A DNA stretch of 63,698 nucleotides, the filler included, from Nemertoderma westbladi (Eukaryota > Animalia > Xenacoelomorpha), in NCBI GenBank assembly GCA_032718475.1. It is 3 parts of 3 records of this genome, joined end to end, with 100 filler letters (N's around TTAATTAATTAA, not from the genome) between each part and the next. Parts side by side here need not be neighbours in the genome. Positions count along the whole stretch, not along the records: positions 1 to 31,234 come from JAUCBJ010004032.1; 2 more parts are not named here. One strand, 5' to 3'. Position 1 is the first letter of the stretch. The number at the start of each line of letters is the position of its first letter. Positions 130-62,800 of this stretch are shown piece by piece. The translations under genes were made by a program, and so were the position numbers. Under the pieces are notes generated by a model, which was not told the origin of the DNA, ran no database searches, and saw only the letters and a program-made list of their open reading frames with translations.

Positions 130-3100
130 TTACGTTATGGAGTCCCTAGATATTTGTCGGATTAGGGAAGTGGTCGTAGGAAGAGTATCTTGCCTTCCAT
201 AGTTTCCGGACAGTTTTTGGTCTCTTTCCAGTAAACATAAACGACCAGCTGGGTGATTGGGTTGTCGTGTTACTTTCTCCGCTCCCTTGGCCTGTCTAAT
301 CTCAGTCGGGTTAAGGTGGGGAGGCCATTCATCTTCTTCTTTACTTAGGGAGTCGGGTCCACCTAACCAGCCGGGAGTATCTATCCGTTCTTGAGGAGTC
401 GCTCCTCTGGAAGCGATGTCGGCTAGATTAATCATCTCGGGGCGATGTCTCCATTGATCTTCATTGGAGTTAATATCGTCATTATCTGAGGAGTATGGTG
501 TTCCCTCAGTTGGGTCGTCCACATCACTGCTCTCCACTTCCCCCTTTACTTGGTATACCTGTTGTTGAGGTAATCTCTCTTTGAGAGTTCTACGGGAAGG
601 ACCAGTGAAGTACCAACCTACTCTAGTTCTTACAGCATAGGTTTGTAGTGGCTGTGGTTGAGCAGGCAGTTTCTCTAATGGCTCGAGCGCCTCATGCGCG
701 TTTTGGCCGATGAGCATTTGCACTCCAGGATAATCGGTTTGGAATCGAGGTATCTCAAGATGTTGGATGCACTCGTCCTCGTCCCAGTTATAAGGATCTG
801 CTTGAGTAATAGCAAAGTTCTTTATAGCCACCATTTTTACTGACCTTATCGCTTGTGTTCCTAACTTATCCTGGGGGGTGGACAACACACCTACATAGTA
901 ATCTGCCGTCAGGGTAGATTTCCAAACCTGCATAATTCCTGACATATTCAATTTAGTCCGGAACTTGGGTTGTCCAGCAAAGATATCTTCGGCTAGTTCT
1001 TGATCGATGAATGTTCCTGTGCTGCCGGAGTCCAGGAGGGCGTTCACTATGTAGCTTTTGTTAAGACCGTGAACTCTTACCTGAACTACAGGAAATTCTC
1101 TGATTCCTACGTTGGAAGCTGGAGCTTTCCAAGATGGTTGTTTGGCGAAAGTAGTTTGGGGAAACTCCTCGTTGATGTCTTTTTCGTAAGTAAGTGCTCG
1201 ATACACTGTGGTATTTATTAGATAACAGGATTCGTTGGCATCGGAGAATTCGTCTGTATAGAATCCTTCCCATTCAGAACTTTGGTCAGTGTCGTTCACA
1301 TCACTGAATTGGACATGTAGTTCGGGCTCACTTACCTGACTCGGGTTGTCTCGTTCGAACTCACTGTGTAACAAAATGTGATGTTTCGCGCCACACTTTG
1401 CACACTTTGCGTCGGAGTAACAGGTTCGCCGTTGGTGTCCTGATCTGAGGCAATTATAGCATAACCGCTTATTCCACAGGACTGTACGTCTGTCTACAGG
1501 GGATTTCTTTAGAAATTCAGCACACGCACTCAAACGGTGGGTCCCATCACACAGCGCACAATTAGGTTTTATGTTACTTACTTTCACTTGCGTAGTTTGC
1601 TGCACTCTCGTTCTTTCTTCGGGCTTCCTCCCGCGCGTTCTGTTGGGAGACTGAGGAGGGGTCTTAGCAACTTGTTCTCTCCTATTATTGGTTCGAGCTT
1701 TGTATTTACTTACGTCCTGGGAGGTTTTGTCAATATAATAAGACCGTTCGGTGTCTTTCCCGCTGTCTTCGTCTTGGGAAACTTGGCTTTCGCCGTCATC
1801 AGTGTAACACACTGGTGTTACTCTTCTCCTGGAAGTGGGTTTATCACTTACCTTATTTTCTGATGTTTTCTCTCTGGCTTGCTTGATGAGTTGTAGTCTG
1901 ACTTCACCATCCAAGAACGACATGAGATCAGCCATGGTAGGGCTTCGTCGTTGTTGGTCATTCATGTACAACACCTTCTTGTCCCAGCGTGTACATACTC
2001 CACCCTTTGGTAAAGTAGAGACTACGGCTCCAATAACCATGGAACTCTGGTATTCGTGCGACTTACCTAACCAGTCCAGTTGTCTACAGATCTCTTGTAT
2101 TTCATCTGAAAATTCTATAATCCCACTACTAAGGAAGTGTCGGGGGGCTACCAATTTTGTATACAGATACTTAGCGATGTTGTCTTTATTACCATACCTG
2201 ATGTTTAATGTATCCCAAACTTGTCTTAATCCATCTGGATGTCCAATAAACTTTAACGCCATTGACTTGGGAGGTCCTTCCAAACACTTGATGAGGAATC
2301 TAAGTTTCTCTCCGTTAGATAGTACAGAGTTCTGTATGCTATCTTTGTAATATTCGTTGAAAGGTAACCATTTCATCTCATCCCCATTGAATTTGACGAT
2401 CTCTCCCACTTTGACCGCTTGGCGGGCTTCTGTTCTAGCCATCTGACGCGTAAAGCTTTCTTGGGCCATCGTGTTATTTAATATCGAATTATCGGTATCC
2501 AAATTTCTCGGATCATTATCAGGTCTATAGGGAATATCATTAATAACAGGTCTATAATCACCCTTAATAGGGTTTGCTATAGGAGTTTCAACTTCACTAG
2601 CAGTATAGATGCGTGTAGGCTCCACACCTTGCGCATGTGATACTTCAGACCTAACGGGTTGACTCAATGTTACCGGGGGCATTGGTATGCCTTTTTGAAT
2701 ATTGACTAATTTGTCGCGTTCTAGCGCGATACTTTGCTGCACTTCTTGCAACTCTGCTCTACTTTCCCTCACTGTTCCCTTAAGTTGGTGGACGGTTTCT
2801 TGCATCTGTCCTAGCAGGAGATTCATCCCCCGCCGTCCCTCTTCCACCCACTCAACCGCCGAAGCGGGAGTCGCCAACATAGTAGCGGGCTGACGCGGGA
2901 CGACGGGAGACAAATTATTGATTTCTCTCTCTGCTATCTGGACAGGGGTGTTTGCATGGGCTGTTCCACCGGGTACAGGCAGTGTAGTGCTATGTAAAGG
3001 GAATTTAGAGTTAAGCTCTGGAAGTGTAGGGGTCTCTAGCACAGAAGTGACTTTGGGAATTACAGGCCTAATTATTTCAGGTTCATCGACTATAGTAGGG

Positions 3101-4731
3101 AGTCTTTTGACCTGGATAAATTGTTCTATGGGTTCTGCACTACCCAAATCTGTGCTAGTTAGCTGTCTTTTAACAGCTGGGGGCAAATCAGGCAATTTGC
3201 GACGGTAATATGTTTTTCTACGCCTACTTAGATGAGATCTATCTCCTCCGCCTTCAGGGTCTGTAGTATCGCCTTCCTCCGATGATGTGTACCCTTGGCG
3301 CTTGGGAGTAGATTTTCTCATCATCTGCATCTGATTAGCAGTATACTGTTTATTTATACTATCTTGTGTCTCTTGCAGATTTTCCAACTCCAGTTGGGTA
3401 ATCCGCTCAGATGCTCTCCTTTCTGCTTCTGCCACTGCCTTTGCCACTTTTCTTTTTGCTTCTACTTCTGCCGCTGCCACCGCCTTTGCTGCTTCACTTT
3501 CTGCTTCTGCATCTGCTATAGCCGCCGCCATATCCGCCGCCTTTTGTTCCTCTATCCTTCTTTTCTTTATTTGTTCTTCTCGGACTCTAGTGAGACGGAG
3601 TTTTTCATCACATTCAGCTTGATTTGCAGCTATCATTTCAGTATCGATCGCGTCCAGTATAAGCTTGGTTCCTTCACTATTAGGGGAAAGTCCATGTAGC
3701 CGTCTCCTCAACTCTTCGTCTCCTAGGAATCGCTGATAGTCGGACAAATAAATGTCGATAGCGTCTCTAGTTCGCGGTTTCTCGGCGGCCTCTTCGCTTT
3801 TCTCTTGAGTAAGGGTGACATCAGTTGGTTCGGTGACATCAGTTGGTTCCTCATAGATTGATCTCTCAGTCAGCTGGGATTTCCACTGTGCTGTTTCCTG
3901 TACTTTGCGATCTACTCGATGTAGCCAAGTTTTGACAGCAACCTGCAGCGACGTGTCCTGTCTTCTTTTGGAAGTTTCCTCAAAGGCTGAGAGGATTAGT
4001 CGAATGCGTAGAGTTCTTTCGCGTATTTGATATAGCAGTTCTTCCTGCTCTTGAGGTCCATGAGGTTGTCGAAACAGCTGCTCTTCCAATCGCTCCAAGG
4101 ATTCGAAGAATCCCTGCACATATCCTGCTGCCGACCTCTTCCAAACAGCTGGATCCATTGTATTTTGAGCCACTCCCATCCTATGTATATCTTCCCAAGT
4201 AGCCTCAGACAGGTCCAACGGGAGTCCGAGTCCGGGAAAGTTCCATTGTGATTCAACAATAGATATCAATTCTTCCCTGGCGTATCCCGCGTAATCATCT
4301 TGGGTCGCTTGCTTATTCTTCGCCCAGTCGGCTTGATGTTCTTCCACCGCAATGAGTATAGTAGTCAGCACTGTAGCAGGAAGAGTAAGAAGGGGGTCTG
4401 AGTAGACTGTATCAGCCATCTGCACTCCATGTTCGGGAGTCAACTCTACAGTGTCCGAACTGCTGGAGCTATCAGGTCTCTGGGAAGTAGGTTCTTGACC
4501 AAGATGTTGCTGCGATAGGACAGCTGCCTCTTGGTCCCGTTTTACCTGTGCCCGAGTGCCTATGATGGACCTATGGTGGACTAGCCTAGGGTCTGATACT
4601 ACGGGAGGGATGACCTTTTTTACAGTAGGAGGTGAGCCGAACTTCTCTATTATTCGCTCCACTCTCCTATCTGAATCACAGATAGTGGTCTCGATCAGAC
4701 TGTCCGACAGGTTTTGCTGAGTGTCAGACAT
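130..4731 (-). CDS. BEL/Pao retrotransposon Gag-protease polyprotein (1533 aa); RT, most of RNase H and integrase absent
   Basis: DUF1759-like capsid region (KFNGDEMKWLPFNEYY...EKLRFLIKCLEG...WDTLNIRYGN). BEL-type Cys/His knuckles (CALCDGTHRLSAC, CYNCLRSGHQRRTC, CAKCGAKHHILLH). Aspartic protease ALLDSGS, then TRVGWYFTGP. Then only the RNase H C-terminal remnant QWRH...NLADIASRG...WLGGPDSL...EWP before the stop. Confidence 0.93.
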   Translation of the reverse strand: MSDTQQNLSDSLIETTICDSDRRVERIIEKFGSPPTVKKVIPPVVSDPRLVHHRSIIGTRAQVKRDQEAAVLSQQHLGQEPTSQRPDSSSSSDTVELTPEHGVQMADTVYSDPLLTLPATVLTTILIAVEEHQADWAKNKQATQDDYAGYAREELISIVESQWNFPGLGLPLDLSEATWEDIHRMGVAQNTMDPAVWKRSAAGYVQGFFESLERLEEQLFRQPHGPQEQEELLYQIRERTLRIRLILSAFEETSKRRQDTSLQVAVKTWLHRVDRKVQETAQWKSQLTERSIYEEPTDVTEPTDVTLTQEKSEEAAEKPRTRDAIDIYLSDYQRFLGDEELRRRLHGLSPNSEGTKLILDAIDTEMIAANQAECDEKLRLTRVREEQIKKRRIEEQKAADMAAAIADAEAESEAAKAVAAAEVEAKRKVAKAVAEAERRASERITQLELENLQETQDSINKQYTANQMQMMRKSTPKRQGYTSSEEGDTTDPEGGGDRSHLSRRRKTYYRRKLPDLPPAVKRQLTSTDLGSAEPIEQFIQVKRLPTIVDEPEIIRPVIPKVTSVLETPTLPELNSKFPLHSTTLPVPGGTAHANTPVQIAEREINNLSPVVPRQPATMLATPASAVEWVEEGRRGMNLLLGQMQETVHQLKGTVRESRAELQEVQQSIALERDKLVNIQKGIPMPPVTLSQPVRSEVSHAQGVEPTRIYTASEVETPIANPIKGDYRPVINDIPYRPDNDPRNLDTDNSILNNTMAQESFTRQMARTEARQAVKVGEIVKFNGDEMKWLPFNEYYKDSIQNSVLSNGEKLRFLIKCLEGPPKSMALKFIGHPDGLRQVWDTLNIRYGNKDNIAKYLYTKLVAPRHFLSSGIIEFSDEIQEICRQLDWLGKSHEYQSSMVIGAVVSTLPKGGVCTRWDKKVLYMNDQQRRSPTMADLMSFLDGEVRLQLIKQAREKTSENKVSDKPTSRRRVTPVCYTDDGESQVSQDEDSGKDTERSYYIDKTSQDVSKYKARTNNRREQVAKTPPQSPNRTRGRKPEERTRVQQTTQVKVSNIKPNCALCDGTHRLSACAEFLKKSPVDRRTVLWNKRLCYNCLRSGHQRRTCYSDAKCAKCGAKHHILLHSEFERDNPSQVSEPELHVQFSDVNDTDQSSEWEGFYTDEFSDANESCYLINTTVYRALTYEKDINEEFPQTTFAKQPSWKAPASNVGIREFPVVQVRVHGLNKSYIVNALLDSGSTGTFIDQELAEDIFAGQPKFRTKLNMSGIMQVWKSTLTADYYVGVLSTPQDKLGTQAIRSVKMVAIKNFAITQADPYNWDEDECIQHLEIPRFQTDYPGVQMLIGQNAHEALEPLEKLPAQPQPLQTYAVRTRVGWYFTGPSRRTLKERLPQQQVYQVKGEVESSDVDDPTEGTPYSSDNDDINSNEDQWRHRPEMINLADIASRGATPQERIDTPGWLGGPDSLSKEEDEWPPHLNPTEIRQAKGAEKVTRQPNHPAGRLCLLERDQKLSGNYGRQDTLPTTTSLIRQISRDSIT

Positions 4732-4814
4732 GTTTAGTTATACAGTTGAATGTCTACTACTATAATTTCAGTTAAAGCAAATCTAGTAATTCAGTATAAC
4801 CACAAGCCTAGCGA

Positions 4815-5115
4815 TTTATCACCGGTACCGTTACTCAGTGGAACGTGATATATATACAATATATTAGAATACCGGTATGCTTATAATATATAAGTATTAT
4901 TACAGACTAGATTTGTCACAGAGTACCGGTATATAATTTTAGCACAAATATATATATATATATAGTAGGCCTATAATGAATACCGGTATACAGCTTACAC
5001 TTATAGTATATAAGTATAATTCTGGATTAGAATTAATTACAGAGTACCGGTATGATTTCAGCTCAAATTTATAGAAATAAATATAATAAGCCTATTGTAA
5101 GTACCGGTATGTCAA
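4815..5115. repeat. Degenerate repeats built on the TACCGGTA palindrome just upstream of the gag ATG
   Basis: Several taccggta copies with similar flanks (cttata-tatataagtat; acagagtaccggtat). Confidence 0.6.
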
Positions 5116-6094
5116 TTATTTTGAGAATAATTGAATTTCTGAATATTTTAGGGCTACTTGGTTACTTTAACTTACTTTGTTACCGTTGTTTAAGCAGTAG
5201 TCCAACTGATAGTGAGACCTAGTTTTGTATGACAGGCCTACTATTTATAAATCGTTTGATTTGATTTATAATATTTATATACCCGTTATATGGGTTTTTG
5301 TCAATATTTGAAATAAATGTTATTATTTCCGGGGGTTTACTACACAGAAACTGAACGCCTCTCAGTGAAGTGCTATTTATTTGACACTAAAACTGATAAT
5401 TCTAATTTACCTAAGTTACTTAATACTACAAATTACTTACGATACGGGTGAGATTAATTCTCTAATTAAACACAACAAAATATTACGGACGAAATTTTTA
5501 GGGTAATTTTACAGGAAGTCTACAAACCAGTCCAACAAAGGGTTAGATTTCTGGCTATTACAAAGGACAGGGTACTACGGTATTTGAATAATAAGTAGTA
5601 GTAAATATATTGTACTGTCCAGATAGGAAAATACCACCGCCTGACGACCTATAACCGTATCGCTATAGGTACAACGTTATGTATCACGGATTGTTCCTAC
5701 CCAGAAGTTAATAGAGCTAACGAATGTGCCTATCAACCACTTTACAACACAAATATACTGCCTACACTAATTACTTCGGAAGGCACTGTACTCTAAACCC
5801 TAAATTAGGTACAAGTACCGGTATAACAAATAATCAGTAGTTAAATATACTTGAACAGTTAAAAGAACCACGGCATCTGCTGGAGTGACCGAAGCACAAA
5901 GTCGTCAGTCTTTACCTACGCCAAGCAGCCCTGATGTAGTACCGGGGTTAGTTTAACTATAACGGTATGTATAACAAGCACAATTACTGTAGGAATAAAC
6001 TTGGGGACATGAATGTTGCGAATAATCGCATAAACTCTGAATAATAAATATTACGCTACCCGTACAGAATACTCAAACAAATACAAACCAAACG

Positions 6095-6607
6095 CTGGCA
6101 GACTACTATCAAGCCTAAACAAACTACTGTATGTGCAGATTCTGAAACTGTTAGTTAGTATGCGTGCTAACACGGTAGTACGACTTACTCTTTAAGAGGG
6201 GATTGACCTTACAGTGTTGACTGCCCCAACTTACTAACGGCGCTTGATCAGACCAACTCTACACACGCAGCAATCCCTTCAGACCCAAAAATAGCTAGAC
6301 AACAATCCAGCCTACAAAATATTTGAGTAATAACTATTACGGTACCTGAACAGACCACACAAACAAACACAGGCTAAAACACTGGCAGACTACGATCAAG
6401 CCTAAATAAACTACAGTATATGCAGACTCTGAAACTGTTAGTTAGTATGCGTGCTAACACGGTAGTACGACTTACTCTTTAAGAGGGGATTGACCTTACA
6501 GTGTTGACTGCCCCAACTTACTAACGGCACTTTATCAGACAAACTCTACACACGCCGTAATCTCTCCAAACCCAACCACAGTCAGACAGCAGCTCAGCCT
6601 ACAATTA
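6095..6607. repeat. Tandem duplication (period 287 bp) in the 5' leader of the BEL element
   Basis: ctggcagactac...gaaactgttagttagtatgcgtgctaacacggtagtacgacttactctttaagagggg... occurs at 6095 and again at 6382, nearly identical. Confidence 0.9.
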
Positions 6608-6924
6608 TCTGAACAATCTGAGCAGGGTCACACGCCTTCTGCTCAATATTAGCCTACTAGTAAATAAAACTGACAGAAATAAGTAAGCTCCAAAAGAAAC
6701 AAGGGGTGTACAGTCCCTAATCTCTTAAACAGCCTACCGGTATACAATAATCAAAAATCGAATAATACTAAAAGTACTTGTACAGCAGTACCGGTACCGG
6801 TGATGACAGTGATTCAAAGTACCGGCTTGCAACCTTATTGCTTACTGCAATAAGATTATAAACTGTTACTGTTCGACAGAACAGTATTAAACTGTATTTA
6901 ATACTTACACTGCAATACAAGATA

Positions 6925-6933
6925 AACTGTTAC
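6925..6933 (-). promoter_or_regulatory. Non-canonical primer-binding site G-TAACAGTT
   Basis: Lies immediately after the LTR CA end. It has no TGG start and is complementary to the LTR motif AACTGTTA (7223-7230, minus strand). Confidence 0.6.
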
Positions 6934-7250
6934 TGTTCGCGCTTTTGAAGACCTTTAGCAGTTTAACCCGCCAAAATTTATATGTCTTTTCGTTAATTAA
7001 AACCACTTTAGCATACGACAATAATTTATGCTAATACGCAAAACATTAGCCGAAGTCAGCCCATGCGCGATCATTCACCCGATGGATCTACACCCGGGAG
7101 ACTGAATTCGGATGCTTGAATTGTATTATTACAGTGTAAGGTTGTAGTGTATACCTAATGTATTATTCGATAGATCGTTAATAATTAATCTCTGACAGAT
7201 ATTATTGACTTTCGGGAAATATTAACAGTTCCTTTAGGACGTGGCGCTTT
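6934..7250 (-). ncRNA. Conserved structured RNA at the 3' (U5) end of the LTR, copy 1
   Basis: Strongly conserved with 58005-58292, with compensatory changes in predicted helices (see findings). Confidence 0.7.
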
Positions 7251-8178
7251 ACCTATTTAAACAGAACTAAGACTTATACTAAACGCAACGATACTGCTGC
7301 TGATTAAAGTATAAAACGTATTCTTTAGGAAATACTTTGTTACCAATCACAATCATACACACTATTCTGCCGACAGTCAGTATATTTGATCACACATAAA
7401 GAGAGCAGTAATTGACTCGCGTAGGGTCTGCTAAATAACATTGGATTCAATACACACCACATTAATATAAATCGCAATTGTTATATATAGCCGGTCTCTC
7501 TAACCTGTAGTGTTATCAAGAAAATTGGGAATTGGGTGATTTATCCGTATTATCCAAATAGCAATATTTCCATCAACAAATATTTACAATTAATAACTGA
7601 CGGTAAAATAACAGTACAAACAATATGATTAATGAGTTAGGTGATATTCGATTCGTGAGATTAGGTAACAGTTTATACTTTCGATAATTCAAGCAGTTCT
7701 GCAGTTCACGGTACAGCAGTATCTATCCAAAAATGCCGGTGTTTCTGGCTTAGACAGCAATAACAACAAAAGTAACAACTCTCTCTCTCTCTCCAGTCAG
7801 AGCGAACACTCTCCATGATTTCCAGGAAAGCTACACGTCGACAGGAAAAATCGCCCTGATTGGCCCAAGCCAAACAAAGAACCACGCTGCCAATGGCTGT
7901 TTCCATGTCAGCAACCAGCTGCTAGATGTCGTAATATGAATCATCACGGCTAAGCTGTGAAAGGTGGTTTGTGCATTACAAGTTTTTGTCTTACCATGTC
8001 CGCTAAAACACGTATATAGCAGAATGATTTTTATGTCCGTTAAAACACCTGTAAAGGTACCTTGCGGGCGAGGGGAATATATATACAGTTAGAAAACCTT
8101 TTTTAGAGTATTCCAGCGCCGGGGGGGGAACTGGCCAGCCAAGGCAAACGTATCAGTTATCCCACAAAAGCTTTTACA
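6934..8178 (-). mobile_element. 5' LTR (1245 bp) of the BEL/Pao element
   Basis: Minus strand starts TGTAAAAGCTTTTG at 8178 and ends AAAAGCGCGAACA at 6934. Both termini match the TSD-bounded solo LTR at 57112-58292. Shared internal blocks include GGTGTTTTAxxGGACATAAAA and CCAATCAG. Confidence 0.88.
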
Positions 8179-23182: not shown

Positions 23183-26100
23183 ATGGCTGAAATCATTACC
23201 GATTTATCGGAATTGATAAGTCGACGAACTTTGTTAGAGGACCGCTATCTGGAAGCGAGGATATTACACGTGGTTAACTCCTCCAAAACTCTAAAAAGTG
23301 AAGAAAATACGAAAAAGTTCAGAGCATCTTATAATACTATGGTATTTCTAATGTAAGTATTTAAAGAAAATTAGAACAAGAAGCGGTATTCGTTTTCTGG
23401 TGAAGGGCCGGGTGTAGTTTTTTATTTCAACTACTGTAGAGGTAGTCTTTAAAAAGTAATCTGAAATTTTTCATATAGGCCTATAGGTGATTCACGAAAT
23501 GCATAATGCGGGGTTGTGTCTCATATCTGCCAAAAATTTTCTTAAATAGTTAATATCTTAAATAAATATTTCTTTTAAAATATCTTTTTAACGGTGTAGA
23601 AAAATTTCAATATAATTTATTAAAGTTGTTAATATTTATAACTATTTTTGGATAGTTGTAAAACCTGAAAATAAGAAAAAGGATGAAATTATCAATGACA
23701 ATATCGAATTAAACACACATTAAAGTAATCTACTAAATGTCGCTTTCTGTAGCTATTATTAGAAGGCACATTTTTTAATTATTAATAAAATTTGAAAATT
23801 TCGTCGTATTTTCGACCTTAAAAGTAATTTAATTCGAAATAATGTGTGCTTGTTGGTTGTTAGGTGTTGACCAATGGGGGCTTAGATGAATCCACTCAGC
23901 ATTAGCAAATTAGTGTGGGGCGAGCAATGAAAGTAAACAATTATAGGCCTACCTTTACAACGGCTTATGGTCAAAATGTCGAAAGAGCCAAAATGTCGAA
24001 AGAGACAAATTGTCGAAAAGTAGAGTCAAATTGTCGAAAAAGTTTTTGGGCATGTCAAAATGTCGAATTTTTTTTCGACAATATGGCGCACCCCTTTCGA
24101 CAATATGGCGCTTATCCTTTTTTAGATACTTTTGAATTTTGATACTAAATTGTTGAACCTGAGAAATTGGAAACCTGATAATTGATATGGCTAAAGAATT
24201 GTGTATAATATCTCAATAGCAATGGGCAATATAGGCCTATACAGTAAGAGTTATCTTGACTAGCTGACCATTGGGCATTACTCCTCTAAAGCCTGGGGTA
24301 CCAGTCCAATGTCCATCAAACAACGCATGTACATCTTACAGTCATTATAATAAATGTTATTAGGCCATGCAGCCATGTAGTTTGCGAATCGCCCCATCTC
24401 CTCAACCAAGCGTTGGTCCCGTATCTGGATATGTGGAGACTTTGGTTCTAGCAAGGCCTTCATGCGCTGCTGGGAAGTATGTTGATTTAACTGGAAAAAT
24501 TCCAAGATCTCTCCAAGGCACGGATGGAGGCTGGTGAGCCGGGAATGAAGCCCATTGTGGAAACCTTCAGCATAGTTGCTGGTCCTAGGGCCGGTATTTC
24601 CGAACTGTCCCCATCTGATGAATACATCCTGCCGAAGCCAAAATCCAATAAAATATTGTCGAAATTGGAAAACTTTATTGGCTGTTAAAGCGGACATGTT
24701 TGGTAGCTGTTCATTGATCAGAGTATAGGCAACCTGATAGCGATACCCATCAGGAAGGAATGGTAAAGAACGAATCTCTTTGAACCAATACTTTACAGTT
24801 TTACCCTCTGCTGTATCTTCAACACAAACACCTTTGAGGCCAAGGCTGTCTCGCTTCTCGTTTATGGCCTTAGCGAAATGAAAAGCGCATCCTAACACGG
24901 TCGCCATTGGGAAAACTATATTGCAAGCATTCATTGCTGCAAGTTCGAAATCGAAAAGCCACTTAGATGTATTAATTCTGCCACCTTCACCGCAAAGATG
25001 ATAAATGTTATCTCTTAAAGCAGTAAACATCCTGATGTAGCTTCCTTCCGATTGTCCCTTCATCAGAGCGTATCCTAAAACATGGGGCTCTCCACCCACC
25101 ACACCATGCACTGTATACATTTCACCCGGGTTGTGAAATTCGGGAGGCGTAAACTTAAAGTTCCCATCACAGATGACAACTTCGCAATTATTTAACAAGC
25201 GTAGATCATCGTCTGCTGAATAGAGCAGTATTTCTTCTCCCTCAATAATTTCAATTAATGTTGTGTCTACTGTATATAGATTTGTCATTTTGTCGTTCTG
25301 TAGGTGTGTTAGTATTTGGTAATGTTTTAAAACGTTAATAACTCAGCTAATCCTTGATCAAATACAACCAAACTTGGTACACATGTTATTTGGAAAAAGT
25401 TGAGAAATTTTTCGAATATAATTTCCGTGAGGCGTTCAGGATGGGCACAACAAGGCTAATGAACGATGCGAGAGTTGGGTTGATACTCAGTTAATTAATA
25501 ATGAAATCTAACGAAACTTGTTACAAATGTAGTTTGACAAAATTTTATAAATTTTGCGAATTTGCAAATATCATTCAAATTGAAATTGACAATAAAAAAA
25601 ATAGATGTTAGATATTCTTATGATATTAATATTATGTTATTATTATTATTATTAATATTGGTCTCTGCTGGTTGTACAACTGTACAAAATGCTGCAATGT
25701 GACCAGATTTCAAAGTATGGCAAACCTGCACGTCTGGACCTGTACTTCTATCGCATATTTCTGCGCCTCAATATTATTTTTCTGCGCCGTAGTCAAAAAT
25801 TCCGCGCTTGAACAACGTTTTTCTGCGCCTGATTCAATGACATTTTCAAAAAAAATCAAATATCATTTAATCAAATACTAATAATGGAATGTTGTAAGAT
25901 ATTGTTATTTGGTGACCAGGTTATACAGTAGGGCGAAAGCAAAGAGTTTTGCAGTGGATAAGAGTATCCGTTTGCTATAAATTAGCAGATATTTTTGTAT
26001 TTTCGAGACTCTGTATTATTTATAAGTTACGATAATTTTTTTTAGACAAAACCTGGAAGAGCGCATATTGTAAAACTTACTCAAATCATACGTAATTTAA

Positions 26101-31234: not shown

Positions 31235-31334
31235 NNNNNNNNNNNNNNNNNNNNNNNNNNNNNNNNNNNNNNNNNNNNTTAATTAATTAANNNNNNNNNN
31301 NNNNNNNNNNNNNNNNNNNNNNNNNNNNNNNNNN
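31235..31334. other. Artificial 100-nt gap/linker (N44-TTAATTAATTAA-N44)
   Basis: N runs around a 12-mer with stops in all six frames. Confidence 0.97.
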
Positions 31335-34937: not shown

Positions 34938-36240
34938 TTACTGGTCTAGTTTTGCTAACACAAAATGTTTACAGTTTAAAAACATCTGCAATCCAAAATC
35001 GTTAGAAACAAGACTACGTGGCCCCGCGGTATTACCAAGGTATTGCCTAAGTTGGTGTAAATCGGAATCCGATAAGATATCAATATCGAATACGTCAACC
35101 ACGGATTCTTCATCTTCAGGGACAGGTCCCTGCCAGTCGATACCAAATTCTGTTACGCCAGCAGTGTTCAGGATAATATTGTCTATATCAGAGTTGACGA
35201 GACGACTGTTAATAAAAATTTGTTTGAGGCTCCAATTACTTTCAGTTCTCAGAAAATGAAAATTCCACGCTACTGAAAATTCCACAAGTGCTTTACTAAT
35301 CCGAGGTATATACACATAGTGCAAGGCAAATAGGTGCCCTTTATTAGTCGAATCCAGGTAATTATTAGTTTCCATCCAGTAAAATAAACGGTAATATGTC
35401 TGACTTACCACTCTAAAAACATCGCGCCACAGCCGCTCAATCCGCTGATTGTGGGTACTTGGACCCGCAATGAAACTACCCCTACCAGTGCCGCGAACCG
35501 ATACCATATAACAAGCAACGTCGCGATTTTCGCCTCCTTTTATCGCCTCGTACACGTGATGGGGTTCCATATAACGATATCGCTTCTTCAAATAGTTCTA
35601 GAACAGTTTGAGCGCAATTATTACTGCTGCATTTTAAGTATGTTATTAAGCGCGAGAACCCATAAATTCCGCCATTGAATAACTAAACCCCATCGAATTA
35701 ACTAATGGTGTCCAACGATGTGCCACAGCGAGTTGGCACCTCGTACGGAATACTTACGTCTTCTCACTAATGCCCCCCATCTCTGGCGCTGATAACACGG
35801 GGTCGATCTTCGTCAATAATATATGAATAGAACTCGAAATGAACTTTTCGTAAAGTAACATGAATGCCACGACTTTCTAAAATACCTTTGACTAAAACGA
35901 CAGCCAGCATGAACATAGTTTCTATGTATTTGTTCGATGATTGTTTGCAAATCAGAGTCACTAATATCGGTAAAGGTTAGCCGACGTTGAATTCAGAATT
36001 CAATCACGCGTCTAGTTATAGTGGCCCTACTAACTCCCACCATTTTACTAATTTGCACCCAGGTAAATCCAACATCTCTCATATATTCTAGCATATCTTT
36101 ATTTAATTCATAGGATGGTCGTCCAGATTCACCACAATGAAATGTACTTATATTCAGTGTTGAACGCGTACAACATGAACTTATATTACCATTTAATGGC
36201 GTAATACTGTTCATCCATGTAAGCCAAGGTCGTGTTTGCT
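34938..36240 (-). pseudogene. IS3EU-like DDE integrase-core transposase, frameshifted
   Basis: N-terminal HTH GRPSYELNKDMLEYMRDVGFTWVQISKMVGVSRATITRR. Decayed LIRWGLVI...[10 protein letters not shown] block. GGENRDVA...[26 protein letters not shown]. Confidence 0.82.
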
Positions 36241-40014: not shown

Positions 40015-41184
40015 TGTACATTAATTATAGCATACTTTCTGAATTATTCTTCCCATGCTTCTGTAGTCAGCCTGCAACACTACCGGTAGCCAGCTTCTAA
40101 CAATAGGAAGCATGGAGTAGACAGGTAGAGGCGCCGGGGACTGTAGGCCTAGGCCTACCTACCGAACGGACGAGGTGACAGACTACCGGGGGGTCAGATT
40201 AAACAGTTTTTGGCTATTAGATTAATTTGACAGACTGTAAGGACCTTTGATATTCTCGTCTAAAAAAATTCATCCAACTATCCAACCAATTCTGAACAGT
40301 CAAACCTACCAAACACTTATTTTATTTGTTATAAATTAGAACCAATCAGTTTCATCTAAATCTGTCATTACTACAGTATTTTTTGTGGAGCTGTGGAAAT
40401 GATTAGCTAAGACATTTACAATTTGATTTGTTTTATTAGTGGTTGTTGGATTAGGAGAGAGTTGATAGAGTTGAACTCAGGGATTCTCAATTCTATCTTT
40501 AGGGATATAGATTGACTGATGATGACGGAGTAGGCCTACTGTACGAAGTAATAACGCCAACACGGGTCTGTCTGTTAACACTTTAATTCCATATTGACCA
40601 ATATTTGAGCAATAATAATACAGATATTAGTTTTTTCGGATAAAAATTTAATAATGAGTCATTAGTCCACGCCCTTGCCCACACCTCGAAGTACCGATTG
40701 CTGGATTGTCAGCCATTGGCGAGAGTTTCTGTCCTTGGTAACAAAATTTCCTCCCTGAGAGACCGTAGCCTAGGGGTAGACTACAGTTCAGCGGTTGACC
40801 GTATTATCATTGGCTGTCTGTTCCTGGAAAGGAAGATTATTAGTTCTTCCGCTGTTTGTGTGTGGATTAGCAGTGTTTAGCGGATCCTAGAGGGATGGCG
40901 GCCAGACTAGACCCAACACGGGCGAATGAGACCGCATTTAGAACGGCTTGAGGTGTTCGACCTTTGGTATCTGGATCGAAACATACAGGGAAGAACTCCT
41001 TGCAGCCTTGTCCCTCGAGAACCAAAATAAGAACATTTGTGGATTCGGTTCCAATTTAATACTTTGTATATATGTTCTAGGTGTGTAGGTAGGCGTAGGG
41101 CGTGCTGAATTATCTCTACTAATTAAAGTTAGGTAGACTATTATGTAATCTGTGAAGATATTCCAGATTTGTAGATGTATTCTA

Positions 41185-43191
41185 ATGTGTGATCTTATGG
41201 ATACAGCTACTGTTATTGGTATATGGGATAAGATTTGTCCTGCTTGTAAAGAATTCTGCTACAATAGTCCAGGAGTTCTATTTTGCCATTTTTCTGAATT
41301 TCATATAAAGGAGGATACCTGTATACCGTGCAATTTATCTTTAAACGTATCAACACGAGAGGAACACATTTTACATCATGTAAATATTGTTTTTAACTCC
41401 TGCAATCTATGTGGGGTTTCATGTGACTCAATCCAGAGCCTTGCATCGCACATACGAGTTATGCATGGAGGTAAAATTCATACGAATTTTCAACCTGCTC
41501 TATGGAAAACAAGTCGAGTAAATACCAATACCCAACGAGAAGTTATACCAATGAATCAAACCACCATGCTGGCCAATTCAACTACCGGTACCAACTCCAC
41601 TATGGAAAATAATTTATCAATTATCTATGGAAATACTAAAGGTAGATGTAGCCAAGTTATTGCTGCCTCTTCACTAAATCAGAATGAGGATAAGGAACAG
41701 CCAATTATTTCTTCAGAAGATATTGTTAATTCAGGAAGGAGAGAAAGTGTCTCAGAAATTGGTTTGTGTAATTTAGACACACCGACTCAACTACAACCAA
41801 ATTATATGGATACGCCTAGTGGATCTGATCTCAGTGTAAGTTCAAGGGATGCTGATAAATGGAAACCTTTAACAAGTTATGGCGACATTGCTGCATTTAT
41901 TGATAAGACACACATCTATAAGTGTGCATATTATTATGGTTCTAACAGTTTAAAGCCAATTAATGCTTATGAAGCTAAAATCCCATGTTGTAATTGTGGT
42001 GAAATATGTAATGGTTATAAACTCTTAAAAGAACATTTTTATCAAGTACATACAAATAACATAAACAGTTGCACCATTTGCAACATTAGTTTTAATGATA
42101 TTTCTGCTCTTAATCGCCATATGTACAGGCATCTGGCTAAGGCAAGGTTTACATGCTCTGTTTGCAAAAAATCGTTTCCTGAACGATTGTATCTTTTGCA
42201 ACATTTGAAATCATTTCACAGGTTGTCAGAATTTGTAACTCAAGGTAATGAATTTATGGAGTGCAGTGATACATGTAATAATGGAACTCTTCATCATGAC
42301 TCAATAGTTTCAAATACCAAAACTCGGTTCATTGTTGCTTCACCAGGTATAGAACAAGATATCGAAGTTGCACTATTTGGCAAGGGACTGGAAAAGAACC
42401 CCAAAGGCCAACGCACTGAATTACTCCATGTTGTGGCTTCTAAATCGCCCCCTGTCATAGAATCATATTCACTTTTTACATGTTCTAAATGCATTATGGA
42501 ATTCCAAGACTACACGCAATTTGTTAATCACAAAGTAAATAACTGCGGTGATGCTAGCACAGATGCAATTTCTACAAATAGTTCTTTGGAATTGTCAGGA
42601 AATAAAGATAGTCTTGTGGATTCTAATTGTGCTACAATGGTACATAAGGTGAATGAAAAAATGGAATCTGTTCGCAACAACAACAAGGAAGAACACAAGA
42701 TAGTAAAAAAAATCATTCGTGATTTATATTGCCAACATTGCAAAATGGTTTTCAGTAATTTATCTATCTTGAAGCATCATTTGAACAATATGCACGAGTA
42801 CTCTAGCATTGAAAATATTGAACTGGAGCCGAGTATACCAGGACCAGCTTCTAATAATGTAATTGATTCGATATCCCCTCAACCAATGAATGCAGCCCAT
42901 GCTGATTCAATACGAGACGAATCATCGCCTGGTGGAATACCAACTCAAACATTCCATGGGTTCCATGTTGACCATTCGGTAGTTCAACCAGTTTATTCAC
43001 CAGAACCAAAGCGACGTATGTCTGCTTCACGTCTCAATGGTAGCCACTCCGACTCTGTCAATGTCAGTTATTTGAGGAGCATGATTCAGGCTAACTCTTG
43101 CGTTGGTCGAGGATTACAACCCCAAATACGATTGATTAAGTTCTCGCTTCCAGGAGGTGATGACGTGATTACTTACAGTGGGCAGGGATGA
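41185..43191 (+). CDS. C2H2 zinc-finger protein (single long exon; true start uncertain)
   Basis: Multiple CxxC-x12-Hx3-4H fingers, e.g. CNLCGVSCDSIQSLASHIRVMH, CTICNISFNDISALNRHMYRH, CSVCKKSFPERLYLLQHLKSFH and CQHCKMVFSNLSILKHHLNNMH, in a 679-codon open frame. Confidence 0.9.
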   Translation: MCDLMDTATVIGIWDKICPACKEFCYNSPGVLFCHFSEFHIKEDTCIPCNLSLNVSTREEHILHHVNIVFNSCNLCGVSCDSIQSLASHIRVMHGGKIHTNFQPALWKTSRVNTNTQREVIPMNQTTMLANSTTGTNSTMENNLSIIYGNTKGRCSQVIAASSLNQNEDKEQPIISSEDIVNSGRRESVSEIGLCNLDTPTQLQPNYMDTPSGSDLSVSSRDADKWKPLTSYGDIAAFIDKTHIYKCAYYYGSNSLKPINAYEAKIPCCNCGEICNGYKLLKEHFYQVHTNNINSCTICNISFNDISALNRHMYRHLAKARFTCSVCKKSFPERLYLLQHLKSFHRLSEFVTQGNEFMECSDTCNNGTLHHDSIVSNTKTRFIVASPGIEQDIEVALFGKGLEKNPKGQRTELLHVVASKSPPVIESYSLFTCSKCIMEFQDYTQFVNHKVNNCGDASTDAISTNSSLELSGNKDSLVDSNCATMVHKVNEKMESVRNNNKEEHKIVKKIIRDLYCQHCKMVFSNLSILKHHLNNMHEYSSIENIELEPSIPGPASNNVIDSISPQPMNAAHADSIRDESSPGGIPTQTFHGFHVDHSVVQPVYSPEPKRRMSASRLNGSHSDSVNVSYLRSMIQANSCVGRGLQPQIRLIKFSLPGGDDVITYSGQG

Positions 43192-48880: not shown

Positions 48881-48980
48881 NNNNNNNNNNNNNNNNNNNN
48901 NNNNNNNNNNNNNNNNNNNNNNNNTTAATTAATTAANNNNNNNNNNNNNNNNNNNNNNNNNNNNNNNNNNNNNNNNNNNN
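48881..48980. other. Artificial 100-nt gap/linker with TTAATTAATTAA
   Basis: Same structure as 31235-31334. Confidence 0.97.
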
Positions 48981-54286: not shown

Positions 54287-57111
54287 TCACCGTCTATCAC
54301 GTTTGCAAAATTGCAAAAAGTATTTTATCAATGTTCATGATCATGAATTTAAGTAATTCTTGTGTTAAATTACGCGCAAGACTCTCCACTTTCACTTGAT
54401 ATAAGCCACGTGTGAAATGATTGAGATTAAATGTGTATTTGAATGGATCTAAAATCACCCACCATAGAAACCAATGTAAGAAATTATCAGAGCACTTCGT
54501 AGTGACGTCAAATCTGTAGCAGCCAATCACAGCTGATTTTCAAAATTGGCTTCCCGCGCTTACTTAAACCCACCATTTCGACGGTTTCCTCGTGTTTTTA
54601 CAAAAACCACACCCCGCCACTCGATTCAGGGCTGTGACGGGATCCGAGTTGGCAAAGGATCCGGACCGGTGTGTGTTTCGAGTCGTATGGAATATACGCG
54701 TCGCCGCGTCTGCTTGGATATTGAAAGGCTGTCGAAGGGGCTGAAAGGCCGAAGGCCGTTATAATAACTGAGTTTATAGTTTGCGGTTATTGATAATATC
54801 AGATATATAAAGCACAATCAGAATAGTGTAATAATAGCAGTAACAACGACGACGGTTAAAAACCGTCTGACTTCTACACTCTACATAGCCAACTGAACCA
54901 CGATTAACAGAGTAACGGTTACATGGGAGATTACACATTCCTACCTATGTTTGACCTGCCAGTACATGCGCGCTAATTGATGGAAAGCCGCCCCGCTATT
55001 GGTTGATCTACTCCTTCGCCAATCCCTATTTTCCCCTGATGTGCTGGCATCTCTCTCTAGCTGGCAGTGTATATTGCCCCGTTGCCTTTAGTATGCAATA
55101 TTACATTAGTGATATTGCATATCTAATCGTGATTTGTAAATCACGACTTTCCCCATTCTCCGCTGGGTGGTGCAGCGAATTGGATCCGCTAACAAGGGCA
55201 CCTTGTTACCCCTTATTGGATAGTTATTTTTAGTTATATATTATACAGAACACACCCGAACACACTCCAAAAACTGCCGAACACAATCGAGCACAGACGA
55301 AAATAGAAAGAGCACAAAAAAATAACACCGGGTACCAACTTTTATTATTATCTGTGAGGGAGTGTGAGTGAGAGGAAAGCCAGCACGCTGCGCCACATCC
55401 TCCATTCTGCTCTGGTTATAAAGCAATCAAGGTGTCTATCTATCTGCAGTGCGCAAATTTAAATAATACAACAATCAATGGTTGATGACATATAGTCCTG
55501 AATACTCTATAAATGAGAATTATCTAACAATTTTCAAGCCCGTCGATTTAATACAATTATGATTTATAATTATTAATTTATAATTTTAATGTTCAGAATT
55601 AATAATCTAGACATAAGAATCGGCTATCTATTAGTATTTGTCCAATCGGTGGTTCATTATTTTAGGTGGGAATTTGAGACAGGGGGAGGGGGGATTTATT
55701 TATAAATTGAAACCTCACTCACCGAAAACACCAAGAACTAGTTTGTGTTTCGAAACGCAATGTGATATAGATTAGTAGAAAAATTTGGGTGGGGGGTGTG
55801 GGAGGGGGGAGGGGGGGGTGATGTCCGTGTCACCGGAAAATGACAATATTACGGGTGTAATGGTTGTTGGTTTGATAATTATTATTTTATTAGTTTTATT
55901 ATATAATCACATTATTGTTGTGTATATTATGGGCGTACTTAGACTTTGCCTGTCTGTTATATTGTTTGCACAGTAACGTTGCGCAGTTTCCCATAAGCCA
56001 TAAGCTCACCCATACACTACCTAATCTTACATTATTAACGTACAGACTGAATTACAGTTTCTACTCTACAGTTTCTACGAATATCTACTCTACCGGTGGA
56101 TATGGCGGATGTAGCACCGGTGAGGAATCTGCATACCGAATCACTCCAGAGGGAAAGAAGGTTTGCCTTATTGTCAACATCACTGAGTTTTATACTTCTG
56201 CAGATGCGCCGGCCACAGACCCAAAACAAAGTAGGCAGCAAAGATCAGGTACCGATGTGGAACACATAAAACGGGTATTTGGCAACGATCTGCGTTGTCA
56301 AATAATCGAGTTTGACACTATTATGACGGAGCTGAAGGCTCCATCCCGGCATGTGCCCGGAACAATAGATAGGGACAACCTTCGTAAAGGTTTACTACAC
56401 ATACGCGATGAGAAATTGGCGGACACGGAATGCCTGTTCGTCTTCGTTATGAGTCACGGAACAAAAGGTGTAATTTGCACCTCAACATTTGAGGAAACGG
56501 AACCTATTCGTAGCATTGCCGAGTTGTTCTCTAGCAGCTGTTTAGCCCTACGAGATCCCCCGAGACCCCGGGTATTATTCTTCGAAGCATGCCAGGAACA
56601 AAAGTCAAATGTAAAAACTGAAACGTTAATCCTAAGTGACACAATCTTTGATGATATGGCTCTTGTTTTGAGTGCTAGTACCGGACAAAATGCTCATGGT
56701 TATGATAGACAAGGAACCGCATTTGTTGTCCGCGTGTGCCAAACAATTAAAAATATCGTCAGCCGATCTGCGGCTAGCGATATTAGGATATTATTTCAAG
56801 AATTAACGAAGCGATCTTCTGTATATCAGGATAAGGAAGATGATATTCACTCTACCCATGTCGCCTTGGTCCGAACCCTTATTTATCCACTCTTTCTCGC
56901 TGATTTTATTAACCCGCCGCAGCCCCCTTTCGTTATTAAGTTACAGAAGAACCAGCACGAAATATCATCTCGTATTACTAATTTCAATGAAGTAGTTGTC
57001 GTGCTGAAAAGTAAATTCGTTATAAATGCAAACGAGGCGGAAGAAGTCAATAATCAAAAAACAACCATAGATAAAATGAATTTTCTAATTGATATTTTGA
57101 TAAAGAAGAAG

Positions 57112-58292
57112 TGTAAAAGCTTTTGCGTGATTAACCGGTTATTTTCCCCGTAAAGTACTCTGTAGTTGGTTTACCAGGCATAAAAAGGCCGTGTCCTTGC
57201 TGTACTGGTGTTTTAGAGGACATAAAAGTCATTTCTTCTGTATTTGTACTTTAGAGGACATAATCCGCAATCTCGTGACGCGATAAGCTAGATACTCTTG
57301 AAAACAGTGTCGCTACCATGACGACGGCTAACAGCTGATATTGCCACGTCGACATTTCTTTGTTTCTTTGTTCTCTCGTTGTTCGGTTGACCAATCAGAG
57401 CGTTTTTTGTCTCTGTGTTGGAGGTGGATACAGAAACTCAGTAGTTCAGTGTTATGTTTTTGCCCAGAGCCTAAGAACATCGGCTTTTGGCACCTCCGTA
57501 TATCAGCATTCTTTAGCTTTACATTAGTAGGCTTAATTATAGAACGTATATCTGTTATCTAACCTAACCATACCAATGCAAACGAGTTACCGAGTTAACT
57601 CACTCACTTAATAATCATTTATACCTTAACTTTACTGCTTTTACTGTCGGTTATTCATTATATTGGTTGATGAAATATTATATCGGAATACTGATCAATA
57701 ATCAGACACCCAACCTTCTTGATATACTAAAGGTTAGAGAGACCGGTTACAGATAAACGATTGCGACCTATGTTAAGTGGTTTGAAGTGAATCTAATGCT
57801 ATTTCATATGCCCGACATAAATTGTATGTTGCTCTCTTTATACGTGACCAAATTTAGTGAAGGTCGGCAGATTAGTGTGCAGTATTGTGCAGCATTGTGT
57901 ATGAGTGTAACTGATAACAAAGCATCTCCTAAAGAATGCGCCATATACGTGAATCTATAGCCTTTTCGTTGTGTCTAGTTTAAGTCATAACTCTGTTTAC
58001 ATATTTAGAGCGCCACGTCCTAAAGGAACTGTTAATATTTCCCGAAAGTGAATAATATTTGTCAGAGATTATATATTACGATCAGTCGAATAATACGGTA
58101 GGCTTACACCATCAATCATTAAGCTCCGAATTCAGTCTCCCGGGTATATCCAGCGGGTGAATGATTGCGCATAGACTGGCTTCGGCTAATGTAGTGTATC
58201 AAATACTCGTCATAGGCTAAAGACTATCTATCATCTAAAAGACATTCTAATTTTGGCAGGTTAAACTGTCAAAGGTCTTAAAAGCGCAAACA
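57112..58292 (+). mobile_element. Solo LTR (1181 bp) of the BEL family with 5-bp TSD AGAAG
   Basis: TG...CA ends. AGAAG at 57107-57111 and 58293-58297. Homologous to 6934-8178. Excision restores the caspase reading frame. Confidence 0.93.
58005..58292 (+). ncRNA. Conserved structured RNA at the 3' (U5) end of the LTR, copy 2
   Basis: Helices CCGAA/TTCGG, CAGTCT/AGACTG, TTTGGCAG/CTGTCAAA and AAGAC/GTCTT, plus pseudoknot TTGCGC/GCGCAA; several covary with copy 1. Confidence 0.7.
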
Positions 58293-61547: not shown

Positions 61548-62039
61548 CCAAATACCAAATATTTCCATACCAAATTAATTGGTTAAAATGGTTATGGTAT
61601 TTCCATACCATAACCAAGTATTTCCATACCAAATTTCGTAGCATTTTATTTAAATTTGAAAACAATAATTAGTAGAGGGAATGGGGTCTCCAACTTGCTA
61701 AAAATGGTTGCTGTATTAAGGGAGATGGTGTATGCATAACAAATAGGGTAAGATAATTTAACTATTATGTATGTTTAGTATTTTAATACTTATAACTAAT
61801 AATTATAATATTGAGGGTTACGACCCGGGTAGGCCCATTATGCCGTTATACCCTTAAATTTAATATTGATATTGTAGTTTGTATAAGAATGAAAAAATAA
61901 TTAACTATTTACATCATTGTGTGCAAAGTGGCCCATTGCAGCGTTACGACCCGAGTTAATTTATGTACCGAGCGAGCGCAGCGAGAGAGGTTATATTGAC
62001 ATATTCACAATATATGCATTGGATGATATATTGTGACAC

Positions 62040-62800
62040 ACTCAGGTACTCTCACCAGATAGTGAAACTGAGTTCTTCTCAATCCTGGCTGGGGTACTGC
62101 AAGGTGACACATTGGCGCCATTACTATTTGTAATTGTGCTGGATTATGCAATGAGGACGGCCACAAAGGGTGAAGTTCTGGGATTCACACCTCAAGAACG
62201 CAGAAGTAGTAGATATCCGGAAACAACAGTCACAGACACCGACTTTGCGGATGACATCGCCCTGCTCTCTAATACCCTAGCAGATGCACAGCTTCTACTA
62301 AATAAAGTGGAGATGGATGCTAAGGAGGTTGGATTGCATATAAATGCTACCAAGACCGAATTCATGACCTTTAATGTTGATGGGAACTTGACAACAATTG
62401 ATAATAATCAACTAAGGAAGGTCGATGACTTCCAGTACCTTGGATCATGGATAGAGAGTAGCAAAAAGGACATAGAAGTTAGGAAAGCAAAGGCTTGGGT
62501 AGCTCTATCAAAAATGGATACCATCTGGAAATCAGATCTCTCCAGGCACCTGAGTTCTTTCCTAAGTTCTTTCGAGCCACATTGGAAAGTGTACTTTTAT
62601 ACGGGGGTGAGACCTGGACACTGACTAAATCACTTGAACAACGAATTGATGGTTGTTTGCTACACAAGACTACTAAGGGCAGCCCTAAACATCAGCTGGA
62701 GACAACACATGACAAACGCCGAGCTTTATGGTACAATACCACCTGTATCAACCACCCTCCGTGAACGCAGATTAAGATTCAGTGGGAACTGTGGGGAAGT
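62040..62800 (+). mobile_element. RTE-clade LINE RT fragment, same family as 39342-40014, frameshifted
   Basis: GVLQGDTLAPLLFVIVLDYAMR, DTDFADDIALLS and FQYLGS; DNA nearly identical to the other copy. Confidence 0.92.

Follow-up and report, generated by a model that had tools for sequence, protein, structure and literature searches.

What primes minus-strand DNA synthesis in a BEL/Pao retrotransposon whose primer-binding site (PBS) has no TGG? The ICTV account of Belpaoviridae (PMC8742986, in its accessible text) assigns the family an 18-nt PBS for tRNA-Arg or tRNA-Gly and tRNA priming, and describes its replication as poorly understood. The element considered here lies in a 63,698-nt stretch of Nemertoderma westbladi DNA, which was analysed at its full length and is called the window below. 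Its PBS lacks TGG, a 12-bp complement of that PBS lies inside its own LTR in exact register, and the same self-match is found in relatives. We consider it likely that the element primes minus-strand DNA from its own RNA, with an internal LTR segment pairing with the PBS and being cut at its 3' end. An earlier note on this DNA had proposed tRNA-independent self-priming from within the LTR. That idea is supported by the 12-nt site, which is stronger than the one the note had chosen, and by nine relatives; the note's choice of 7223-7230 as the primer is not.

The long copy of the element lies on the minus strand. Alignment to a solo LTR with a target-site duplication placed its 5' LTR at 6934..8178 (1245 nt, TGTAAAA...GAACA); the start at 8178 and the length had been absent from the earlier note, whose reading of a TGG-less PBS after ...GAACA was borne out by the LTR end at 6934. 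The solo LTR (57112..58292, plus strand) represents a sister subfamily, with 73% identity over the 3' 696 columns, and is flanked on both sides by an AGAAG duplication. Contigs joining across its insertion point, that is, the empty site, were present in two of four sequencing runs. Thus, TG..CA LTRs and a short target-site duplication are shown on the solo LTR, the 3' LTR of the long copy lying outside the window. The family is of high copy number, as 8982 contigs of run X1 aligned to the solo LTR. Both AATAAA and ATTAAA are absent from the two LTRs (6934-8178 and 57112-58292), so the 3' end signal may be non-canonical or may lie inside a conserved block of the LTR.

N-flanked TTAATTAATTAA linkers occur at 31235-31334 and 48881-48980. 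Because the window consists of concatenated contigs, the long copy sits on another contig than the solo LTR. A reading frame with a caspase domain and a CARD occupies 55894-57153 (+). Taken from stop to stop, it extends 42 bases into the start of the solo LTR, and its end may therefore have been changed by the insertion. Additionally, fragments that belong to other elements or genes (MULE transposase, integrase core, C2H2 zinc finger and RT) were found at 24278-25342, 34938-35597, 41149-43191 and 62037-62624.

The coding content is of the BEL/Pao gag-pol type, not that of Ty3/gypsy chromoviruses (the Tf1/sushi group). Specifically, an open reading frame at 130..4737 (minus) contains a DUF1759 match (E 8e-13), zinc knuckles and a protease-like motif, and runs into a short late-pol remnant. 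Most of its 42 homologues carry the Pao domain PF05380. Protein searches found distant relatives only and no close ones. The homologue alignments cover gag and protease and then jump to the late-pol remnant, which indicates that the window's element is a deleted copy without the RT region. Most of RNase H is absent as well, and this copy lacks the full set of RT, RNase H and integrase. The leader between the LTR and the reading frame (4731-6933, minus) is long (2.2 kb) and contains a duplicated 287-bp stretch (6038-6604) as well as a degenerate repeat (4848-5110).

Directly adjoining the LTR end is the 12-nt PBS (6922..6933, minus). The sequence after the LTR end reads GTAACAGTTTAT; it contains no TGG, and no 18-nt PBS for the 3' end of tRNA-Arg or tRNA-Gly was found past the LTR. 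A perfect 12-nt complement of the PBS, the likely self-primer, is located at 7665..7676 (minus; LTR positions 503-514), and its 3' base pairs with the first base past the LTR (offset 0). A match of this length was reached in 0.04% of 5000 LTR shuffles and in one of 2000 in a second run. Along the leader, LTR complements of at least 12 bases start at 4 of 2173 positions: one at the PBS, two overlapping ones at its duplicate, and one at 6768. For self-primers, the accessible text of PMC6317226 gives an in-silico rule of at least 10 bp in the 5' LTR complementary to a region that starts 0-5 bp past the LTR; the 12-mer at 7665-7676 lies within this rule and the 8-9-mer at 7223 falls below it. In the solo LTR, the neighbourhood of the primer is recognisable at the same place (equivalent site, 57547-57558), with changes inside the 12-mer, and this site forms seven Watson-Crick pairs and one G-U pair out of 12 with the window's PBS.

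A second copy of the LTR end and PBS (6857..6875, minus) is located 64 nt downstream of the first and has a 13-bp match to 7665-7677. Directly 3' of this second unit is an 11-bp hairpin (6831..6857, minus; -11.6 kcal/mol). The tandem duplication of LTR end and PBS (6857-6940, minus) differs in unit number and make-up among contigs: among those covering 6845-6995, the PBS-hairpin unit is joined directly to the LTR end in at least seven X1 and at least five X3 contigs, and others are longer. Therefore, the second PBS unit of the window is a polymorphic duplication. The PBS itself also varies. Among the contigs listed, positions 10-11 differ in two X5 contigs, one X5 contig carries several changes from position 5 onward, and the first four bases are fixed across variants. 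Both variants pair 3/3 with the solo LTR site at PBS positions 9-11, compared with 1/3 for the window's PBS, the contigs being unphased. Such variation is not expected of a PBS that is recopied from a tRNA, so the PBS of the window's family appears unlike a tRNA-templated one.

The 8-nt complement on which the earlier note relied, AACTGTTA, is indeed present at 7223..7230 (minus) and at 58027-58034, letters and coordinates being correct, and it lies within the invariant block common to both LTRs. A G-U pair extends it to 9 bp at offset 1, as the note had said. The note's caveat that such a match could be chance proved justified: 12.8% of 5000 LTR shuffles gave at least 8 bp at offsets 0-3. With the 12-mer site masked, matches of at least 8 bp to the real LTR were found at 235 of 2090 leader positions, and the 220-nt conserved block alone gave 74 of 2090. 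Moreover, a local helix may form over part of the 8-mer, and in two X3 contigs the sixth base of the 8-mer is altered, which would break its pair with the PBS; among the contigs listed, the opposing PBS base is fixed across variants. Taken together with the comparison of relatives below, the sequences place the primer site probably at 7665-7676 rather than at 7223-7230.

The conserved, structure-prone block (7040..7250, minus) is situated within the 731 nt between the primer and the LTR end, 400 nt from the likely cut. Rfam searches of both LTRs at E up to 10 gave no group I, lariat-capping, HDV-like, hammerhead or twister match. Two crossing helices are possible in the block (minus): 7226-7220:7183-7177 (7 bp), which needs a bulge in the solo LTR, and 7192-7187:7103-7098 (6 bp), which holds there. 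In their order they are reminiscent of the P3-P7 pseudoknot found in group I RNAs, for which Rfam gave no match. The block was considered as a possible group I or lariat-capping RNA, an interpretation that was set aside because one of the crossing helices is imperfect in the solo LTR. A scan with a pattern of the conserved block returned 0 matches in viral contigs and 0 in prokaryote genomes. Two matches in metagenome contigs were discarded as chance because their flanks had no similarity. A BEL/Pao protein scan of viral contigs confirmed none.

Equilibrium folding of the 5' RNA, as modelled, does not favour either the 12-mer or the 8-mer duplex. The mean pair probability of 7665 with the first PBS was at most 0.028 in nine folds, and that of the 8-mer duplex did not exceed 0.001 in 10 folds; the 12-mer paired with the second PBS copy at a probability of 0.585 in one of six folds. 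Forcing the duplex cost 8.7-13.5 kcal/mol for the 12-mer versus 9.0-10.1 for the 8-mer, whereas the isolated duplexes were predicted at -16.3 kcal/mol (12-mer region) and -9.8 kcal/mol (8-mer). When the central duplex was forced, helices were predicted at 7042-7036:6942-6936 and elsewhere.

Relatives of the element were sought with a BEL/Pao alignment scan of prokaryote assemblies, which gave 17 loci; more were added by searches of 10 of those assemblies and by two further sequence retrievals. These prokaryote species-representative assemblies (G001-G010, loci L003-L079; 13 matches in G005) hold near-complete animal BEL/Pao elements, evidently host DNA carried in metagenome bins. A 5' LTR end could be read in 14 distinct elements, nine without TGG and five with TGG. 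Loci whose LTR pair was unreadable (L005, L006, L008, L010, L013, L014, L016, L017, L018, L063-L067, L072, L074 and L075) were left out, as was L069, a near copy of L068; L003, L004 and L007 come from one assembly.

Before junctions were considered, contiguous matches between LTR and PBS in the relatives were only mildly long. GT..AG introns were then predicted in the LTR texts, and their joined ends complete the match to the PBS. The matches were scored with a fixed rule (a GTRAG donor, a YAG acceptor with at least 7 pyrimidines of 14, and an offset of at most 8), in which the acceptor had been loosened from 9 to 7 pyrimidines of 14 after L015 and the offset limit had been set after L019; the stricter first rule had given six of nine matching, the window included. 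Under the fixed rule, seven of the nine TGG-less relatives have an 11-12 bp match to their own LTR, which crosses a GTRAG..YAG junction in six (L003, L004, L007, L015, L019 and L073) and is contiguous in L011, as is the window's 12-mer. Additionally, L009 matches at 11/11 bp with a GTATGT donor, outside the fixed rule, and L012 at 10/11 bp. The five TGG elements reach 4, 6, 6, 4 and 7 bp under the same rule. Among non-cognate pairings of LTR and PBS, only one of 225 reaches 11 and two reach at least 10.

The earlier note had named covariation of PBS and LTR across TGG-less BEL/Pao families as a check. Two sister families, L003 and L004, show such a change: the three bases before the donor and the three matching PBS bases change together in a compensatory way. 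For L007, the PBS was used to predict the exon end while the donor was still unseen, and the predicted end was then found; the LTR pair of L073 was found and scored after the splice-junction idea had been formed. In total, a spliceosomal intron (76-1022 nt) is predicted in the 5' LTRs of L003, L004, L007, L009, L012, L015, L019 and L073, and each exon junction complements the PBS of its own element. AATAAA follows the primer within 1-32 nt in seven of these eight intron-bearing LTRs and in seven of the nine relatives. The distance from primer to LTR end is 44-149 nt in the relatives versus 731 nt in the window, where this tail also has no AATAAA; the dissimilarity counts against the proposed priming. 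The matching segment ends in AC in 7 of 10 self-matching segments, the window's 12-mer included, and in AC plus one base in two more, whereas the 8-mer at 7223-7230 ends in TA.

A primer spanning a GT..AG junction was not found in the window, where the 12-mer is contiguous and no junction matches under the fixed rule. One GT..AG pair at window LTR positions 510/674 gave an 11-bp match and was rejected, because its donor is non-canonical and the match is trivial, given that GTTA begins both sides.

In an RT-RNase H tree of 30 rows, seven self-matching elements and five TGG elements were split at 100/100, with L019 and L073 left out of the tree and the query alignment favouring the self-matching clade. 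A quick tree of gag-protease placed the window on the self-matching side with an SH-aLRT of 95 and a long-branch warning. In the quick tree, the window became the outermost branch once four long rows were left out, on a long branch and with at most 26% identity. These placements are no more than compatible with kinship between the window's element and the self-matching clade.

Based on these data, the following route may be proposed. The LTR segment 7676-7665 would pair with the PBS at 6922-6933, and a cut after 7665, by analogy with Tf1, would free the 3' end of the primer. As the window's copy lacks RT, the cutting enzyme would be the RNase H of a helper element. The primer would then be extended into the LTR, giving a strong-stop DNA of about 730 nt. 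A CCAAT box at 7859..7863 (minus), common to the solo LTR, suggests a transcription start about 110-150 nt upstream of the primer, which would make the primer internal. During plus-strand synthesis, the PBS would be recopied from the primer, so each PBS would follow its own LTR and, in relatives, an exon-exon junction that is absent from the DNA. Since the primer of most relatives exists only across a predicted LTR intron, splicing would build it; the window's family would represent the contiguous form, as in L011. The LTR intron might survive replication if the upstream part of the new LTR were copied from the unspliced 3' LTR.

More broadly, we lean towards the view that a BEL/Pao lineage swapped tRNA priming for an internal self-primer that, in most families, the host spliceosome assembles by taking out an intron within the LTR, which would make reverse transcription dependent on splicing. 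The window would then be an intron-less, high-copy branch in which the primer is contiguous and 731 nt from the PBS, and the conserved folded RNA between them may serve to join the two.

Among the other explanations, the one that survives best keeps the element's RNA as primer and departs from a Tf1-like cut of the 5' LTR in cis: the primer would be supplied in trans, either by the partner RNA or by a short transcript of the LTR, or would derive from the copy of the segment in the 3' LTR. The primer sequence is present in both LTRs and cis folding over 730 nt is not favoured; moreover, the AATAAA soon after the primer in seven of nine relatives makes short LTR-only transcripts plausible. Sequence reads the same for cis and trans, and the cis route has a precedent in Tf1 (PMC7175516, as far as its accessible text goes). 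We regard this alternative as improbable, and prefer the cut in cis.

Somewhat less probable again is a primer supplied by the host, as a tRNA fragment or another small RNA, with the LTR match being incidental. The CUGUUA core resembles an anticodon loop of tRNA-Asn, and this was counted in favour of a host tRNA. ARAGORN found no tRNA in the window. The PBS has no TGG and differs between the subfamilies and all relatives, and each PBS fits its own LTR and almost never another's, all of which argues against a host primer. For their part, tRNA priming is the ICTV description for Belpaoviridae (PMC8742986), and half-tRNA primers are known in Ty1/copia lineages (PMC6317226), according to the accessible portions of these sources.

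It is very unlikely that the complement arose by chance, or that it serves a structural or regulatory pairing with no part in priming. The AT-rich LTR does yield other long matches: the leader segment 6757..6768 (minus) is also a perfect 12-bp complement, of LTR positions 7160-7171, and the two form a candidate LTR-leader duplex, for which two of three long folds gave a pair probability of about 0.97; its LTR side is nearly identical in the solo LTR. However, the register of the self-primer is exact at the LTR boundary, the match recurs in relatives, in part at junctions only, and it is absent in TGG elements.

Hardly credible, and the least likely of all, is a primer at 7223-7231 (8-9 nt) that a structured RNA would open by directing cleavage or 2'-OH branching: the 8-mer is real, kept in both LTRs, one base from the boundary and penalised by constrained folding no more than the 12-mer, but it is at chance level, forms the weaker isolated duplex, is broken by one PBS variant, has its sixth base changed in the two X3 contigs, and ends unlike most self-matching segments. 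The structured-RNA part of that proposal, in which the block would direct the cleavage or branching, finds no support either. Self-matching relatives have only 44-149 nt from primer to LTR end, so a ribozyme or 2'-OH route is unnecessary, and the window's LTRs had only short, weak blastn matches to the first 19 loci.

The earlier note's statement that self-priming is not known for BEL/Pao agrees with the open literature searched, in which no report was found. Term searches in the accessible texts of the BEL/Pao surveys PMC554778, PMC3118150, PMC6238403, PMC8556966, PMC2774666 and PMC12451622 turned up no discussion of the PBS. If the proposed route is true, it would constitute a further independent origin of self-priming, beyond Tf1 and the predicted Ty3/gypsy and Ty1/copia lineages, and a primer built by splicing would link host splicing directly to the start of reverse transcription. 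It also provides a rule for annotating BEL/Pao elements whose PBS has resisted assignment, and raises the question of how an LTR intron survives replication.

Several known systems can be compared with the window's element. Retrons prime from a 2'-OH, and what they share with the element is no more than the broad notion that priming can occur inside a folded RNA; no branching G or retron-like arms are in evidence in the window. With Belpaoviridae, the element shares the DUF1759 gag, zinc knuckles, protease-like motif, TG..CA LTR and 5-bp duplication, whereas it and its nine relatives are without the tRNA PBS of the ICTV description (PMC8742986, accessible text). The fungal GalEa Conserved Hairpin Site and bivalve TRIMs likewise have no tRNA PBS and carry a hairpin just past the 5' LTR (PMC5445492 and PMC6934838, accessible text); for GalEa, an LTR complement was not found by its authors in what those texts report, whereas the window has a perfect one and its hairpin lies 3' of the PBS.

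Self-priming is documented in Tf1/sushi and has been suggested in Tcn1 and TAR (PMC6317226; bioRxiv 10.1101/2022.12.06.519325; accessible texts). The predicted self-primers of TAR (Houba, Osr-1; Ty1/copia) and of Tcn1 rest on the same kind of evidence as ours (PMC6317226), but they belong to other superfamilies and no splice-junction primer is described for them in the accessible text. The closest parallel is with Tf1/Tf2 of Schizosaccharomyces pombe and the Tf1/sushi group, which also have no tRNA PBS and in which 11-12 nt of the element's own 5' LTR RNA complement the adjoining PBS. Tf1 RNA pairs with the PBS through its first 11 bases and is cut by RNase H between bases 11 and 12, as the accessible text of PMC7175516 describes. 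The three-duplex 'pretzel' of Tf1 (bioRxiv 10.1101/2022.12.06.519325, accessible text) was not clearly recovered in the window. Tf1/sushi elements are Ty3/gypsy chromoviruses, whereas the window's element is BEL/Pao; the Tf1 primer is the RNA's first 11 bases, whereas that of the window is probably internal, 731 nt from the LTR end, and that of the relatives spans a predicted splice junction.
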